Shown: piece after piece, positions 23,870 to 34,748 of the stretch | How positions within the stretch are numbered: the first letter of the stretch is position 1 | Layout of the letters: each line of letters begins with the position of its first letter | Assembly (NCBI GenBank): GCA_002099625.1 | Contig: GCA_002099625.1_4857.1 | From: Escherichia coli | Lineage (GTDB): Bacteria; Pseudomonadota; Gammaproteobacteria; Enterobacterales; Enterobacteriaceae | Reading direction: 5' to 3' (one strand) | DNA: 64,000 nt | The notes under the pieces: generated by a model | What the model was told of the DNA's origin: nothing | Database searches by the model: none | What the model saw: only the letters and a program-made list of their open reading frames with translations | Made by a program: the position numbers and the translations under genes

Positions 23870-25363
23870 TTATTTCTTCTTAGTCAAGAACTTAGGTTCC
23901 AGACCATCCACGGCCATCGCCAGTAATGACATTGCTGTTAAGCAACGCTTACCACCTTTGACTTCCTGATCCTTGAACATCCAGTATTCCACTGTATTGT
24001 CCAGAATTTCATTCCAGTCCCACTTTTCGTCGATAACTTTATAAAGCTCCGCCGGTGAGAGATGGTACTTCATTTCCAGTCGGTGGTAGTTATTCTGCAT
24101 GTACGCTAGTGCGGCGGTGATTTCCAACGCACGGCGCAAACGCGGGTTGCTGTCACACATGTCGCGAATCGTGGTACGCATGAAAGATGTACCAGGTAGC
24201 AAATCGAGGGTATAGTTAGCACCACTACGTTTGTAGCCCCATTCATCTTTCAGTGTGTCGCTCAGGTAATGCCACAGAGAGAGGTGATAAAGCAGACCCA
24301 TCTCCTGCGAGAAGACCATTTTGAACTTAACGCCTGTGTGACCACCCTTCGCACGGTACTGCGTGAAAACAATTTCTTTCAGGTCGTTCACCGAAGCATT
24401 CATTGCTTTCGAACGCGCAGTCGGGTATTTCTCTTCGTTTACACCGGTCTTCGCGTTGTAAGTCTGATCCTGCTTCAACTCACCAGACTTGGTTGCAACC
24501 AGCAGGGAGTTAGTTAAGAACGACAACTGACGGCGCGGGATACCCGCAAACTTCAGATCATCGCCTGCATCGTCCAACAGTTTACCGTTCGCCTTCGGTC
24601 CACCACGGCCACCTGCCGCCATTGCTTTACCCGCATCGTCGGCCAACTGAGCAACGAAGCCCATATAGAAACCACCACGCGCAAACGCAGACGGCCAACG
24701 GCTCATCATGTTCGATTTCTGCAGCGCATCGTGGGCGTTCAGGATGTTCTGTTCAGAATCACCGACCTCTGATTTGGCGTGTTTCTCTTCCAGGGAAGAG
24801 GTGTGCCATTCGGACAGGGAGTCAATCGAGTACAACCACGGGTCGAGAATCTTTTTCGCAGAGCGACGGATTGGGTCCGGGAACGGTGTTTCACGTGCCT
24901 TACCAGCCATATACTCTTTGAAACGTTTTTCGACTTCGTCACGGATATAAGCAGAGTAATACTCCTCACCCGCCATGATATCCGAGCCAACCATGTTGTA
25001 ACGACCTTCGTGGATCAGGTCCAGCACGCCGCCTGTTGGCGATACTTCTAATCCGTTTGCTTTCGCTGCGGAAATGTACCCCGTTTCCAGACGACTTAAT
25101 GCTGCCGTAACTTCGGTATCGTATTTCGATCCCCAGGCTGCATTATAACGTTGCAGAATCATGAAAATACAGAAGTCCAATAAGGTAGACTTAAAGGTAT
25201 TACCACGACCTGCGAAGCCCATGATGTGGGCAAAACCACCGTTGAGGTAGTACAAACCATCTTCCCCGCGCTCGTAGTTACCGAGAGCGTGGTCCATGAT
25301 GGTATATACGTTAAAACGAGGGCGAATCACTTCACCCATGACTTGTTTAGCTGGACCTGCCAT
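23870..25363 (-). CDS. Possible RecA/UvsX-like recombinase (497 aa)
   Basis: N-terminal GGFAHIMGFAGRGNTFKST resembles the T4 UvsX P-loop region (GG..G.L.LAGPSKSFKSN, recalled from memory); the rest was not alignable by eye. Confidence 0.4.
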   Translation of the reverse strand: MAGPAKQVMGEVIRPRFNVYTIMDHALGNYERGEDGLYYLNGGFAHIMGFAGRGNTFKSTLLDFCIFMILQRYNAAWGSKYDTEVTAALSRLETGYISAAKANGLEVSPTGGVLDLIHEGRYNMVGSDIMAGEEYYSAYIRDEVEKRFKEYMAGKARETPFPDPIRRSAKKILDPWLYSIDSLSEWHTSSLEEKHAKSEVGDSEQNILNAHDALQKSNMMSRWPSAFARGGFYMGFVAQLADDAGKAMAAGGRGGPKANGKLLDDAGDDLKFAGIPRRQLSFLTNSLLVATKSGELKQDQTYNAKTGVNEEKYPTARSKAMNASVNDLKEIVFTQYRAKGGHTGVKFKMVFSQEMGLLYHLSLWHYLSDTLKDEWGYKRSGANYTLDLLPGTSFMRTTIRDMCDSNPRLRRALEITAALAYMQNNYHRLEMKYHLSPAELYKVIDEKWDWNEILDNTVEYWMFKDQEVKGGKRCLTAMSLLAMAVDGLEPKFLTKKK

Positions 25364-29281: not shown

Positions 29282-30022
29282 TTACTTTAAGAGATGCAAG
29301 AAGCGTGCTGCCTGTTCTGTAAAGTGAAAATACTCGATGGTATCAGGTTCGTCCGAGTGAATGTCATCCGGGTCCAGCAGGTAGCCCGAGATATCATCCG
29401 TTAAAACCCAAGCGTCTCCCTGCAGGAAAATACCCATCGGTTTTTCTACCACGGACATCACCAAGTCGGAATAAGAGTTACCTTCTGCTACCTTTACAAT
29501 GTCTTCACACGGGTCAACAATATACAGGTTGCAGAGACTACGATCTTTAAGACTGCGATGAAACATCGCTCGATCGTACCAAATAACCTGAGAACAATTA
29601 TCTTCGTCACCCGCCACATCGACCAACTCTGTCCAGAAACGATGTAAGAACCAGTTCAACGCACCGGTTATTAGCTCGTTCGGTTTCAGCATTCTAACGT
29701 GTTCGTCGTACAACTCTTCCATTGTCCAGATTCGACAATGCTCACGATCGATTGTCGGTAGCGGAGGTATTTGCGGCGGGACTTGTTTAGGCATCGGTTC
29801 ATCACATCTTGCGTTGTAACGCGCAATTGTTTCGGTAACCAGCTCTGCCACAACATCACAAGCCGCTTCAAATCCCCACTTGTACAACACGTCGTAATCT
29901 TCCATGGGCGCAGCACCAAACTCACGGTTCGTTGCCATCCACGACATCCATCCGTATTGCTCCACACAGTTAATCAGACTTTGTGTGTGGAGCGTGAGCG
30001 ATTCACTCACGACTCGCAACAT
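29282..30022 (-). CDS. Hypothetical protein (about 246 aa)
   Basis: ORF; start re-picked at ATG 30022 immediately after the upstream stop. Confidence 0.5.
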   Translation of the reverse strand: MLRVVSESLTLHTQSLINCVEQYGWMSWMATNREFGAAPMEDYDVLYKWGFEAACDVVAELVTETIARYNARCDEPMPKQVPPQIPPLPTIDREHCRIWTMEELYDEHVRMLKPNELITGALNWFLHRFWTELVDVAGDEDNCSQVIWYDRAMFHRSLKDRSLCNLYIVDPCEDIVKVAEGNSYSDLVMSVVEKPMGIFLQGDAWVLTDDISGYLLDPDDIHSDEPDTIEYFHFTEQAARFLHLLK

Positions 30023-30023
30023 G

Positions 30024-31538
30024 TTACACCTCTTCTTCTCGCAGTATGCGACGGTTTGCGTAATACGCACACCACAACCCATGATACTCTTTACCGATAT
30101 AGATTAAGAAGTAACGGATGTAGTATTTTTCAGGACGACACACCGCGATGTAATAACGGCCTTCGGGTTCTTTAATACGGTTGATTTCCGTACGCGATGG
30201 AATATCGATACCGCGAGTCAAAATAACCGAGACAGGTCGTTTACCCATCGGAAAGTCAATCTTTAACGTTATTGACTTATCGACGCTACGGTAGTATTCC
30301 TTAACAGGCTTACCTTTGTCATCGAACAACAAGTCAGTAATATCATTTAAGACATAACCCTTTTCCTGATGCAGAACATCTCTCAACGTTGTAGCGAGTT
30401 CGTCACGAATATCCAGCGCACGGTACGACAATAAGGGCGGGCGAAGCATTCTGGAGATGGCCAGGTCTTCAAAGAACCAGACATTGGAATCTTCTCCACT
30501 GAAATGCATCTTGTCTGCCGGTAATCCATCACCTGCCACGTCAACGAACTTCTTACGTTTAACGAACTCATTGTTAACAACACCGATTGGATCATACTGC
30601 CGCATCTTCGGTGTATCTTTCCATGCCAGGGCGGCGTGGTTGTTTACAATCGTGTAGATGTTATCCCACGGTTGTTTAGTGAACATTACGGAAAAGTGTG
30701 CATCAGGAATCATTTTCCCAATAAACACCAAGTCGTCCTTGTTCTTTGCATGGTTGCCACCAAACATGTAATAGAAAGTTTCATCTTTCACTTTTACAGT
30801 AGGATGGTCCTCGTTCACCAACGGATAGCAATATTTAACCGTACAAATCGGCGGATATGCCGCAAGGTTCATCCCAGCGGCGATGGGCTCGGGTTCCGCG
30901 GATGCAGGCAACTCATCCTTCGACCAGTACGGCTGATATGGAACGCCGTCGTTGGTCGCTGTGATGGCTGAACCTTTTCTAGCCAATTCGTCCGCCCGGT
31001 CGTTACCGTAGTGGCCGGAGTGTCCTTTGATTTTGATAACCTTAACACCCCGTCCTTCTTTTTTCATCTGCTGTTTGATTTCCCAGATACGAACAATAAG
31101 TTCTTTGTTCGCCAGCGGAGTACCGTCAGCACGAACCCAACCACGTTTATGCCAGCCGTCTATCCACTCGTTAAAAGTGTTTACAACGTAACTGGCATCC
31201 ACGTAGATGATATAGTTCTTCGCGCGGAAGGGCGCGTTCTCAAACAACGTGATGAAGGCGATTAACTCGCCCACATCTGAGTAGAACTCTTTCGGAACGG
31301 GAATAACGGCGTCGACAAATTGAACGGTGTCCGGCAACTCCGGACACTTCACATCCTGCGGCACTTTTTTGTATCCAACAGTGGTAATCCGTTCTGAAAC
31401 ACCCGGATGGCTATAAGCCTGACTGTCTTCCAAATCTCCGTTGTTGAATAAATAACCATGAATACCAGCCCCCGAACCTTTCGGGGACTCAGTATGACTA
31501 CCATCGGTATAAATAACCGCTACGTCGACGTCTTTCAT
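30024..31538 (-). CDS. RNase HI-domain protein with about 310-aa C-terminal extension of unknown function
   Basis: N-terminal YTDGS, IIYVDAS, WHKRGWVRADGTPLANKEL and KGHSGHYGNDRADELARKG match the RNase HI catalytic DEDD pattern (compare E. coli RnhA FTDGS / KGHAGHPENERCDELAR). Confidence 0.75.
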   Translation of the reverse strand: MKDVDVAVIYTDGSHTESPKGSGAGIHGYLFNNGDLEDSQAYSHPGVSERITTVGYKKVPQDVKCPELPDTVQFVDAVIPVPKEFYSDVGELIAFITLFENAPFRAKNYIIYVDASYVVNTFNEWIDGWHKRGWVRADGTPLANKELIVRIWEIKQQMKKEGRGVKVIKIKGHSGHYGNDRADELARKGSAITATNDGVPYQPYWSKDELPASAEPEPIAAGMNLAAYPPICTVKYCYPLVNEDHPTVKVKDETFYYMFGGNHAKNKDDLVFIGKMIPDAHFSVMFTKQPWDNIYTIVNNHAALAWKDTPKMRQYDPIGVVNNEFVKRKKFVDVAGDGLPADKMHFSGEDSNVWFFEDLAISRMLRPPLLSYRALDIRDELATTLRDVLHQEKGYVLNDITDLLFDDKGKPVKEYYRSVDKSITLKIDFPMGKRPVSVILTRGIDIPSRTEINRIKEPEGRYYIAVCRPEKYYIRYFLIYIGKEYHGLWCAYYANRRILREEEV

Positions 31539-32257
31539 TATTCTCCTCGCAACTGCGGTGGAACGTATTCACCTGTGCACATTTCGCGGTGGGCTTCTAA
31601 CATGCGTTCGAAGCCGTACGTACGCGCGACCAGGGCCAAATGATAGATGCGTGCCGTAGAATACGCTTCCTTCGCAGCATCAAAGCTAGCGTTATGCTCG
31701 TACGCTTCTTTGCCACGGGTCCAATGGTGCGCTTCTGCGTGCCAGTTCGGTTCCAGGCCAAACGCATATGCAATACGTTCTGCAGTCCGGTCAGAGTCCA
31801 ATATAGAAAACTTGCGGTACTTGCCCGGCGGGATATCGCACTGCGCGAATGCGTTCATCAGAATTGGAGCATCGAAATCGGGACCGCGCATGGTGATAAC
31901 CATTTTCACGTTGCCCAGATCATCCAACCATTTTTTGGCCGCCCACAGTGCTTCTGGCAGTGGAGTGGTCCCAGAAAACGCTTCAATACGTGCTTTCTCG
32001 CTCGGTGCGTATTCGGGGTCGCCTTTACCTTCCCAATAACCGACCGTTTGTGGATCGATGTAGAAGATTTCTTTTGCTTTTGCATCATTGGGGTCGATTT
32101 TGTGGTAACATGAACCGATCATTTTCATTGTCGGAACATCGAATGCCACGTTTGCCAACGTTAAGATGTAGGCATCTGGACGTAAAGCCAGGGTCTCTAA
32201 GTCCGTCCCAACAACAACGGTGGGCGTTAAAACAGGCAGAATTTTAGGATATGTCAT
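31538..32257 (-). CDS. DEDDh-family 3-prime to 5-prime exonuclease (DnaQ-like)
   Basis: VVGTDLETLAL (Exo I DxE) and YEHNASFDAAKEAY (HxAxxD motif). Confidence 0.6.
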   Translation of the reverse strand: MTYPKILPVLTPTVVVGTDLETLALRPDAYILTLANVAFDVPTMKMIGSCYHKIDPNDAKAKEIFYIDPQTVGYWEGKGDPEYAPSEKARIEAFSGTTPLPEALWAAKKWLDDLGNVKMVITMRGPDFDAPILMNAFAQCDIPPGKYRKFSILDSDRTAERIAYAFGLEPNWHAEAHHWTRGKEAYEHNASFDAAKEAYSTARIYHLALVARTYGFERMLEAHREMCTGEYVPPQLRGE

Positions 32258-32300: not shown

Positions 32301-32341
32301 CGTAAAAAAGGAAATCCCCTCTTACCCGAAGGTAAGAGGGA
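32301..32341 (-). terminator. Intrinsic terminator (minus strand)
   Basis: Stem CCCCTCTTACC / GGTAAGAGGG with CGAA loop; T-run on the minus strand. Confidence 0.55.
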
Positions 32342-33368: not shown

Positions 33369-34748
33369 ATGTATGATTTACAAGGCTTTATTCAAATAGC
33401 GGCTCTGATTGATAATGGCCCTGGCAACACCGCTCCGGTAGGTGAGTTGTCTGAGCTGTCATATTCGTTCGCTAAAAGCAAGCAGTATTTTACTAAAGAA
33501 AATCTGCAGGTGGAACTGGTTGCTTTTACTTCTAAACGTGACGAGTTGCCTATTAAGACCCCGGCCGTCTTTAGCGACCACGTTCTTACTGTTTCCCAAT
33601 GGATCTACCAACAGTCTATCCTGGGCAACTTAAGAAACGACGAAGTTGAATTCCAGCGTTTGCTGTTGGGGCAATTTAATAGTGTCATCAGCGGTGTTCA
33701 GTCTGGCGCGATGATTCAGACTAACAGTAACTGGTTCCCACGTTGGGTCAGTTGGAAACTTGAAACCACAGCAGATAAAGTCGAAGACCCATCTGATGTG
33801 AATAACCAGATTATTCTCTGGTTTGCTGATGAAGATTTCAATCAGGACTATACCGGATTTGAAATTGAAGTCCAAATGCCGATATTACCGGTTGATACTT
33901 TCTTGGCTGTGAAATCTGTAGTCGAAAAGGCAATGGAAGGGTTCAACCTTCCGGATCACCATAATAAGATTAACGAATTAGCTGACGGTTATCCGTACAC
34001 TAGCCTGATTACTAACATCTATACTTGGCACGACCAGGAAGACTTTGATTCCACCTTACCGATACCGATGTCGGCTATCATCTACGGACGCGCGGGTCGT
34101 AACCCGAGCAGGATTAAACAAGCGTTGCGTGATTACATTTTGGCAAACTCCAGTTTTACTGTGGCGTTGGGTGTCAAGGTGTTCCCAGAAATCTTTACGA
34201 CCACCAAGTTCACAATTGTTCCGGGTTGGTCAATTCGTGGGATTCCAAATGAGGAAGACGTTGCGGCATTATACTCGCCGATTCTCCCATATGATTTCTG
34301 GGTCAAAGCAATCTCCCGATTTGGGGAGTGGACTGTTCAAACCATTACGGAAAAAAATAGTGGAGCAATCTCAACTCCAACTACCGATGTAACGGATTTA
34401 CCGTCCATCTATAAATCACTAAACGCTGTAGTTATCGCAGGCCCTGAAAACGATTCACGCAAAACGACCCTGCACGATACGATTCCCGACTACGCATTAA
34501 TCGGCACTAACAATGCAGATATTGCGAGAATGTCGAAGAAAACCACCGAGTGGCTGGACCTGTTCTTCCAGGCGTTAATCGCAGCGGAAGAGTATCACCC
34601 ACATTCCACCCCGCTGGATATCGTGAAGCTCGTAGACGACGTTGATCCTAATGTTTACTTCTACGTCTTCGAATTCGATAACGTGGAGTATCGTGTCTTG
34701 GCCCGCAAAGCTGTTTGGGATGTCCCTGCGGCAGAGCCAGAAGCCTAA
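33369..34748 (+). CDS. Hypothetical protein (459 aa), possibly structural
   Basis: Plus-strand island ORF; divergent from the spanin-like gene with an 18-24 bp gap. Confidence 0.6.
   Translation: MYDLQGFIQIAALIDNGPGNTAPVGELSELSYSFAKSKQYFTKENLQVELVAFTSKRDELPIKTPAVFSDHVLTVSQWIYQQSILGNLRNDEVEFQRLLLGQFNSVISGVQSGAMIQTNSNWFPRWVSWKLETTADKVEDPSDVNNQIILWFADEDFNQDYTGFEIEVQMPILPVDTFLAVKSVVEKAMEGFNLPDHHNKINELADGYPYTSLITNIYTWHDQEDFDSTLPIPMSAIIYGRAGRNPSRIKQALRDYILANSSFTVALGVKVFPEIFTTTKFTIVPGWSIRGIPNEEDVAALYSPILPYDFWVKAISRFGEWTVQTITEKNSGAISTPTTDVTDLPSIYKSLNAVVIAGPENDSRKTTLHDTIPDYALIGTNNADIARMSKKTTEWLDLFFQALIAAEEYHPHSTPLDIVKLVDDVDPNVYFYVFEFDNVEYRVLARKAVWDVPAAEPEA

Follow-up and report, generated by a model that had tools for sequence, protein, structure and literature searches.

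A putative RNase H-clamp polymerase subunit and a coupled DexA-like exonuclease gene in an SPN3US-like Salmonella jumbo phage

The DNA described here, referred to as the window, is a stretch of 64,000 nucleotides filed under Escherichia coli (GenBank assembly GCA_002099625.1, contig GCA_002099625.1_4857.1). On its minus strand lies a gene for a 504-residue protein that, by orthology, is very probably (a probability of roughly 0.85) the SPN3US-group counterpart of the RNase H-clamp (Rhc), the third subunit of the phage DNA polymerase, which carries a tethered RNase H. Directly upstream, and overlapping the Rhc gene by one base, is a gene for a predicted 3'-5' exonuclease. With 98.4-99.8% identity to Salmonella jumbo phages of the SPN3US group or SPFM type (genus Seoulvirus), the window is an SPN3US-like nucleus-forming Salmonella jumbo phage. 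The 504-residue protein is 99.8% identical to SPN3US gp059 and matches PHROG 3265 over its full length. Since dozens of full-length homologues exist for this protein and for the exonuclease alike, neither open reading frame (ORF) is a chance product. The Rhc gene and the parts of its product are laid out as follows.

30024-31538, minus strand: Rhc gene, 504 amino acids, ATG start, equivalent to SPN3US ACQ60_gp059
30921-31538, minus strand: N-terminal type 1 RNase H domain (residues 1 to about 206), from PF00075, PDB matches, Foldseek and conservation
31323-31445, minus strand: insertion of about 40 residues (residues 32-72) between beta2 and beta3 of the RNase H fold, from AlphaFold2 secondary structure (predicted local distance difference test score, pLDDT, about 90)
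30873-30920, minus strand: acidic, proline-rich flexible linker (approximately residues 207-222, about 16 residues), DELPASAEPEPIAAGM, from pLDDT and the predicted template modelling score (pTM)
30027-30872, minus strand: C-terminal sliding-clamp-like, predicted DNA-binding domain (approximately residues 223-504, about 280 residues), from its predicted fold

The N-terminal part of the protein is readily recognized as an RNase H of type 1. Pfam family PF00075 matches residues 89-190 (E 8e-22), sequence matches in the PDB are to the E. coli and human RNase H1 enzymes (E 1e-13 to 1e-11), and Foldseek with the full-length model returned the same two enzymes with template modelling (TM) scores of 0.7-0.78 normalised to the target. 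The catalytic residues D12, E91, D114, H173, and D183 correspond to D10, E48, D70, H124, and D134 of the E. coli enzyme; across 45 homologues E91, D114, H173, and D183 do not vary, and D12 is conserved to at least 90%. An earlier note on this DNA had placed all RNase HI catalytic blocks in the N-terminal 190 residues, and the alignment bears this out, with no catalytic residue lost. D114 aligns with D102 of the phage phiKZ orthologue, the residue changed in a published catalytic mutant. The domain shares with E. coli RNase HI the fold, the active site (DEDD plus His), and the basic protrusion (WIDGWHKRGWVRADGTPLANKEL) that characterizes enzymes of the E. coli type, and it differs from it in carrying the beta2-beta3 insertion and a C-terminal extension of about 300 residues. 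The phiKZ protein gp155 also has the insertion, which E. coli RNase HI lacks; alignments of the domain to Pfam and PDB entries begin only at residue 89-91. In one family member, P0104, the RNase H domain is compact (residues 1-143) and leaves no space for the insertion.

The C-terminal extension, which the earlier note described as a 310-residue unknown domain lacking any recognisable motif, is real, and it is not a single domain. An AlphaFold model of the full-length protein built from 45 sequences reached a pLDDT of 89.4 with a pTM of 0.57, and residues 210-215 fell below a pLDDT of 50, which indicates two domains joined by a flexible tether that is acidic and rich in proline. The Foldseek search with the full-length model gave matches to RNase H only, and the C-terminal 305 residues were therefore modelled separately (pLDDT 85.9, pTM 0.84). 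The lack of a motif was a fair description, as searches of the C-terminal domain against Pfam, NCBIfam, and PDB sequences, with a profile included, gave no meaningful match; the sole PDB match of the profile was spurious (E 1.1).

The predicted structure is more informative than the sequence. In a fold comparison of the C-terminal model, the listed figures were 5.5 for the African swine fever virus clamp, 4.9 for a T4-type gp45, 4.7 for the beta clamp, 4.5 for PCNA, and 4.4 for cytomegalovirus UL44, with herpes simplex virus UL42, Kaposi's sarcoma-associated herpesvirus PF-8, and Epstein-Barr virus BMRF1 at lower ranks. Foldseek, which uses a different method, likewise placed PCNA, the 9-1-1 clamp, the beta clamp, and UL44 first, and clamps filled all 15 of the top 15 matches (best E 1.4e-3). 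The fold class of the modelled domain is thus clearly sliding-clamp-like and, as predicted, strongly diverged from that of ring-forming clamps; the Foldseek TM-scores against clamps are globally only about 0.3, which suggests that the subdomains are arranged unlike those of ring clamps. The segments KRKKF, RPPLLSYR, and SRTEINR hold invariant basic residues, placed by the predicted secondary structure on or beside helices, and this is the pattern expected of a surface that would face DNA. That the domain is instead no clamp relative, having another fold such as an ATP-grasp-like one or serving purely as a nuclear-import cargo domain, is exceedingly improbable, since the ATP-grasp matches cover only about 87 aligned residues, where clamps cover 140-185, and ranked below 17 clamp chains, Foldseek concurs on clamps, the phiKZ orthologue was seen on duplex DNA by cryo-electron microscopy according to a preprint abstract (PMC13648687), and an import role would be compatible with clamp function and so is no alternative to it.

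Rhc can be compared with several known systems. The herpesvirus processivity factors UL42, UL44, PF-8, and BMRF1 have no sequence relationship to Rhc; they are without a nuclease domain and bind the C-terminal tail of their polymerase, whereas Rhc is described in preprint abstracts as binding the polymerase thumb and DNAP-C, one of the two chains of the split phage polymerase. With PCNA and its clients that have a PCNA-interacting protein (PIP) box, Rhc has in common that a module of clamp fold brings an RNA-removing nuclease to the replication fork, and the Archaeoglobus fulgidus complex of PCNA with RNase HII (3P83) is among the Foldseek matches of the C-terminal model. In the PCNA systems (archaeal PCNA-RNase HII and PCNA-FEN1), however, the nuclease is a separate protein, with an RNase H of type 2, and uses a peptide to dock on a ring that RFC loads, whereas the RNase H of Rhc is of type 1 and forms one covalent chain with a single clamp-like subunit. 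Unlike the canonical ring clamps (PCNA, beta clamp, and gp45), Rhc belongs to no clamp sequence family and is reported, in the abstract of the phiKZ preprint, to act as a single subunit (PMC13648687).

Searched against a library that comprises 1.84 billion proteins, a profile of the C-terminal domain matched 779 cluster representatives, and among the matches listed nearly all carry the domain at the C-terminus of a protein of 440-585 residues. Three members with the clamp-like domain (P0098, P0099, and P0112) have no recognisable RNase H: the TDGS and GHxGxxGNxxAD blocks are missing, the insertion segment of the N-terminal part gives no more than a trace match, and P0098 begins with a Macro domain (PF01661). 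Their sequences suggest variants in which the nuclease has been lost or replaced.

The identity of the protein as Rhc is indicated by homology and by gene order. BLASTP aligns residues 5-494 with phiKZ gp155 at 26% identity (E 8e-38) and finds Goslar_00246 with E 4e-37, and the profile of the C-terminal domain alone aligns with the C-terminal half of phiKZ gp155 (hhalign 98.2%, E 5e-14). In phiKZ, Goslar, and the window alike, the genes run in the order RNA polymerase beta, the RecA-like protein Nlp1, Rhc, and then an oppositely oriented gene for a virion protein related to gp157. The two flanking homologues in the window, which show that the core gene block is collinear with that of phiKZ, are the following.

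23873-25327, minus strand: RecA-like nuclear protein Nlp1, homologue of phiKZ gp152 (30% identity)
33369-34715, plus strand: virion protein, homologue of phiKZ gp157 (30% identity)

The orthologues have been characterized. In phiKZ, the protein (phiKZ155) is the product of a core gene of nucleus-forming phages and is essential; it is a bona fide RNase H, and its C-terminal domain is structured (Gerovac et al., Nature 2025, PMC12571901). The name Rhc comes from a bioRxiv preprint of October 2026, the abstract of which reports cryo-electron microscopy of the phiKZ replicase: one Rhc subunit with a C-terminal domain related to sliding clamps joins a core of DNAP-N and DNAP-C, Rhc and the polymerase thumb bind the emerging duplex and strongly boost primer extension, and the RNase H is flexibly attached (PMC13648687). 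A second bioRxiv preprint of October 2026 states in its abstract that Goslar Rhc binds DNAP-C, that both of its domains are needed for replication, and that it has a separable role in late transcription, probably the removal of R-loops (PMC13648698). The literature further describes chimallivirus genomes as being without a classical clamp or clamp loader. The protein in the window resembles phiKZ gp155 (Nlp2), PhiPA3 gp176, and Goslar gp246 in its two-domain architecture, catalytic residues, C-terminal homology, genomic position, and polymerase partners, and it differs from the phiKZ and Goslar proteins in being only 26% identical to the former and in that the SPN3US/Erwinia gene is coupled to a DexA-like exonuclease gene. 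RNase H activity, essentiality, and the binding and stimulation of the polymerase are known from these orthologues and would, by orthology, hold for the Salmonella phage protein as well. The suggestion in the earlier note that the extension targets the RNase H to the replisome finds support in the clamp-like predicted fold and in the preprint abstracts, where the orthologues appear as polymerase-bound processivity or DNA-binding subunits (PMC13648687, PMC13648698).

Both polymerase chains are encoded in the near-identical SPN3US genome, by genes that sit outside the window. SPN3US gp248 matches PF20286, a divergent family-B DNA polymerase, and corresponds to DNAP-C; SPN3US ACQ60_gp222 corresponds to DNAP-N and is equivalent to PHIKZ082. 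In an alignment of DNAP-N from SPN3US, four SPN3US-like metagenomic relatives, phiKZ, and phages of Ralstonia and Serratia, the proofreading motifs Exo I (D152xE154), Exo II (N262..F265 D266), and Exo III (Y395..D399) are invariant, and polymerase motif A is shared as well. Compared with the homologues from SPN3US and the Ralstonia and Serratia phages, PHIKZ082 (L040 553-2469) has about 65 additional residues inserted at alignment columns 399-465, and its tblastn match comes in two pieces.

Four points weigh against assigning the protein to Rhc as a polymerase subunit. The first is that no sequence method ties the C-terminal domain to a clamp family; even when 24 family members were compared with Pfam at E values of up to 10, no clamp family was matched. 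The second is that the need for the nuclease is disputed, as the phiKZ155 D102N mutant still complements (PMC12571901), whereas Goslar, according to the preprint abstract, requires catalysis (PMC13648698). The third concerns the equation of Rhc with phiKZ gp155 and Goslar_00246: the preprint abstracts give no gene numbers, and the equation was drawn from the sole RNase H genes seen, namely a single match in each phiKZ-like genome and, in Goslar, one gene annotated as RNase HI. The fourth is that polymerase binding by the SPN3US-group protein is an extension from its orthologues. Set against the homology over both domains, the conserved gene order, and the clamp-like model, these points leave the assignment to Rhc at the probability given above.

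As an Rhc orthologue, the protein would be expected to work in the following way. Its clamp-derived C-terminal domain would bind the split family-B polymerase formed by DNAP-N and DNAP-C, acting as a single subunit rather than as a ring, and together with the polymerase thumb it would grip the duplex leaving the active site and so raise polymerase activity. Inside the phage nucleus, the RNase H would cut RNA that is hybridised to the incoming template, be it primers or R-loops. A gene for a DexA/Rv2179c-type exonuclease was inserted before Rhc in a single branch of the family, and it is co-transcribed and probably co-translated with Rhc. The features of this second gene and its surroundings are given below.

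31538-32257, minus strand: predicted DexA/Rv2179c-like DEDDh 3'-5' exonuclease, 239 amino acids, ATG start, equivalent to SPN3US ACQ60_gp060
31536-31548, minus strand: presumed translational-coupling junction, with GAGGAG at 31548-31543, the exonuclease stop codon TAA at 31540-31538, and the Rhc ATG at 31538-31536
32316-32341, minus strand: GC-rich hairpin resembling an intrinsic terminator (stem of 11 bp, TTCG loop, T-rich tail), which separates gp061 from the start of the exonuclease gene and marks where the exonuclease-Rhc transcription unit begins

The stop codon of the exonuclease and the start codon of Rhc have one base in common (TAATG on the minus strand), so that the overlap described in the earlier note is accurate, and a Shine-Dalgarno-like GAGGAG lies 5 nt upstream at the junction (coding-strand letters GAGGAGAATAATG). 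The gene order gp061-exonuclease-Rhc-gp058-gp057 recurs in 19 of 21 IMG/VR loci and holds even where Rhc identity has fallen to 28%, and in all 19 related loci the exonuclease stop lies between -14 and +29 nt from the presumed Rhc start. A hairpin equivalent to the one in the window, with a different stem sequence that reflects compensatory changes and mostly with a TTCG loop, occupies the same position in 16 of 16 related loci (compared at positions of about 4150-4300 in L004-L021). Given the conserved order, the close spacing of stop and start, and the upstream hairpin, the exonuclease and Rhc genes head a conserved transcription unit. A scan for sigma-70 promoters found 12 sites against 12.6 expected; because this is chance level and these phages use their own RNA polymerases, no promoter is claimed. 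A scan of the window against Rfam gave no match, no fusion of the exonuclease with Rhc was found among the homologues listed, and the gene context of the distant homologue P0049 was uninformative.

On the downstream side, the program-made ORF of gp058 (PHROG 9472; 29282-30082, minus strand) runs 59 nt into the end of Rhc. The PHROG match and the RefSeq annotation both begin at Met21 (30022), 1 nt past the Rhc stop, and the shorter start is therefore the likely one. In LR535903-LR535912 and related records of Salmonella phages SPFM1, 5-8, 10, 12, 14, and 20, the exonuclease and Rhc genes appear in 4-8 tblastn pieces, and the same two genes also occur in SPFM GenBank records as odd hypothetical proteins (P0035-P0037, P0047, and P0070-P0075). 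This points to frameshift-ridden assemblies rather than to biology.

The exonuclease belongs to Pfam PF16473 (Rv2179c-like; 35.5 bits against a cut-off of 27) and to PHROG 255, annotated as exonuclease (E 4e-53). Its DEDDh residues are well conserved, with D19, E21, and D129 each at least 90% conserved and H188 and D193 invariant. A PDB search with the single sequence gave no meaningful match; a profile of the family matched T4 DexA best (8KEN/8KEL), followed by RNase T. Like T4 DexA and Mycobacterium tuberculosis Rv2179c, it is a PF16473 protein of the DEDDh 3'-5' type with a conserved T-x-x-W-W segment after Exo I; its direct match to DexA is weak (E 0.02), and the obligatory linkage to Rhc is a feature of the SPN3US-branch exonuclease and not of DexA or Rv2179c. 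The substrates of the two relatives differ, being single-stranded DNA for DexA and RNA for Rv2179c. A search of the literature on phage homologues of Rv2179c found nothing relevant. The earlier note had called the protein a DnaQ-like exonuclease, which holds at the level of the superfamily and not of the family, as it falls with DexA and Rv2179c (PF16473) rather than with DnaQ epsilon.

The distribution of the exonuclease is narrower than that of the polymerase. By tblastn, homologues occur in 81 records, from phages of Salmonella, Erwinia, Cronobacter, Vibrio, and a few others, and none was found in Pseudomonas phages, whereas DNAP-N is found in 295 phage records. In phiKZ and Goslar, no gene lies between Rhc and the next conserved gene, and phiKZ, Goslar, and two further loci (L023 and L024) have no exonuclease beside Rhc. 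The exonuclease gene is therefore not part of the chimallivirus core. A local hidden Markov model of the family found no match in Goslar 1-150 kb or in the phiKZ stretches examined; hhalign does link the family to Goslar_00147 (L045 34993-36222), a PF16473 exonuclease of 409 residues with an N-terminal extension of about 200 residues. By tblastn, Goslar_00147 is a singleton among the chimalliviruses, and its nearest relatives are the dexA genes of T4-like phages.

What the exonuclease does beside Rhc can be read in more than one way, and it is most likely an accessory nuclease that trims 3' ends or degrades nucleic-acid fragments and not a replicative proofreader. The reading that survives best, with odds that we would put at about even, is that of an independent DexA-like enzyme that scavenges host DNA, or resects ends in recombination or intron homing as in T4, and merely shares a transcript with Rhc. 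Membership of PF16473 and the position of T4 DexA as the closest solved structure favor this, as do the documented roles of DexA in scavenging and intron homing (PMC12153337). Such exonucleases are moreover sporadic in phages, as illustrated by the different one of Goslar, which is encoded 98 kb from Rhc, and the restricted distribution described above fits the same picture. Independence would nevertheless leave unexplained why the overlap with Rhc and the upstream terminator have been so strictly kept over deep divergence, and the match to DexA is itself a weak one.

The conserved arrangement is better accommodated, though on balance this is an unlikely explanation, if the exonuclease is a physical partner of Rhc, that is, a lineage-specific fourth component of the replisome docked on the clamp-like domain. 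Such docking might be likened, with the same reserve, to that of epsilon on the beta clamp or of RNase HII or FEN1 on PCNA, and the enzyme could conceivably, if improbably, trim 3' ends or finish RNA released by the RNase H within the phage nucleus, where host oligoribonucleases may not reach. The persistence of gene order and of overlap or close spacing in all 19 loci speaks for a partnership, and the conserved terminator directly upstream makes the exonuclease and Rhc a unit. The extreme C-terminus of the exonuclease (31541-31573, the last 11 residues, GEYVPPQLRGE) also carries a conserved motif, G-E-Y-x-P-x-x-F/L-L, in which G229 is invariant and Y231 at least 90% conserved, and which we take, speculatively, to resemble the short peptides that dock on clamps. 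In one metagenomic contig (L013 4297-4992, P0059, IMGVR_UViG_3300011741_000001), the catalytic residues are substituted (D19V, E21K, and D129H, with H188 and D193 kept), yet the gene and its TGATG overlap with Rhc persist; judged from these substitutions, P0059 may have lost its catalysis and still have been retained, a hint of some role other than catalysis, although it is a single contig. Against a partnership stand the absence of the exonuclease from the Rhc locus of phiKZ, Goslar, L023, and L024 and, by tblastn, from Pseudomonas phages, the lack of any fusion with Rhc among the homologues listed, and the fact that adjacency alone does not prove binding. In its strongest form, which we regard as doubtful, the exonuclease of the SPN3US/Erwinia branch would be an obligatory partner of Rhc; translational coupling would fix the ratio of the two proteins, and by docking on the clamp-like domain the exonuclease would complete a four-part replicase.

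The earlier note saw in the two genes a primer-removal or proofreading pair. The removal of RNA from template DNA, as primers or R-loops, is what the preprint abstracts propose for the orthologues (PMC13648687, PMC13648698), whereas proofreading by such a pair is not supported. A single pair in which the exonuclease acts as replicative proofreader and Rhc removes the primers is very unlikely. The idea draws on the conserved DEDDh residues, on the position of the gene next to that of a replisome subunit, and on the analysis of Iyer et al. (PMC7824862), who described the divergent polymerase as having no fused exonuclease, so that a stand-alone one was expected. The enzyme so expected is, however, accounted for by DNAP-N, with its invariant Exo I, II, and III motifs in gp222 and phiKZ082, and proofreading is thus already provided. 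The DexA-like gene is also found in far fewer records than DNAP-N, and the phages in which the polymerase has been reconstituted do not have it at their Rhc locus. By its sequence the neighbor is not a DnaQ epsilon-type proofreading subunit, its sole Pfam match being PF16473.

Rhc accounts for the replication of genomes larger than 200 kb in nucleus-forming jumbo phages (Chimalliviridae), which have no recognisable sliding clamp, clamp loader, or primase. In these phages a domain derived from a clamp has turned into a permanent subunit of the polymerase and bears its own RNase H. Rhc itself is already known from the work of 2025-2026 on phiKZ and Goslar, and in this respect the window adds only a further orthologue, one for which the public annotation of ribonuclease is out of date. 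What is added here is that the clamp fold was recovered independently and purely by computation, that the proofreading motifs of the polymerase itself are intact, and that, throughout one large branch of the family, the genes for a DexA-like exonuclease and Rhc are locked together as a conserved unit of two. This unit is a modest lead, and the partnership of the exonuclease with Rhc is the sole part of the finding that is not already explained. If the exonuclease were a component of the replisome, it would represent a lineage-specific elaboration of an already unusual replicase; in a replicase of four parts, the RNase H would cut the RNA and the exonuclease would clear 3' ends or RNA fragments inside the phage nucleus.

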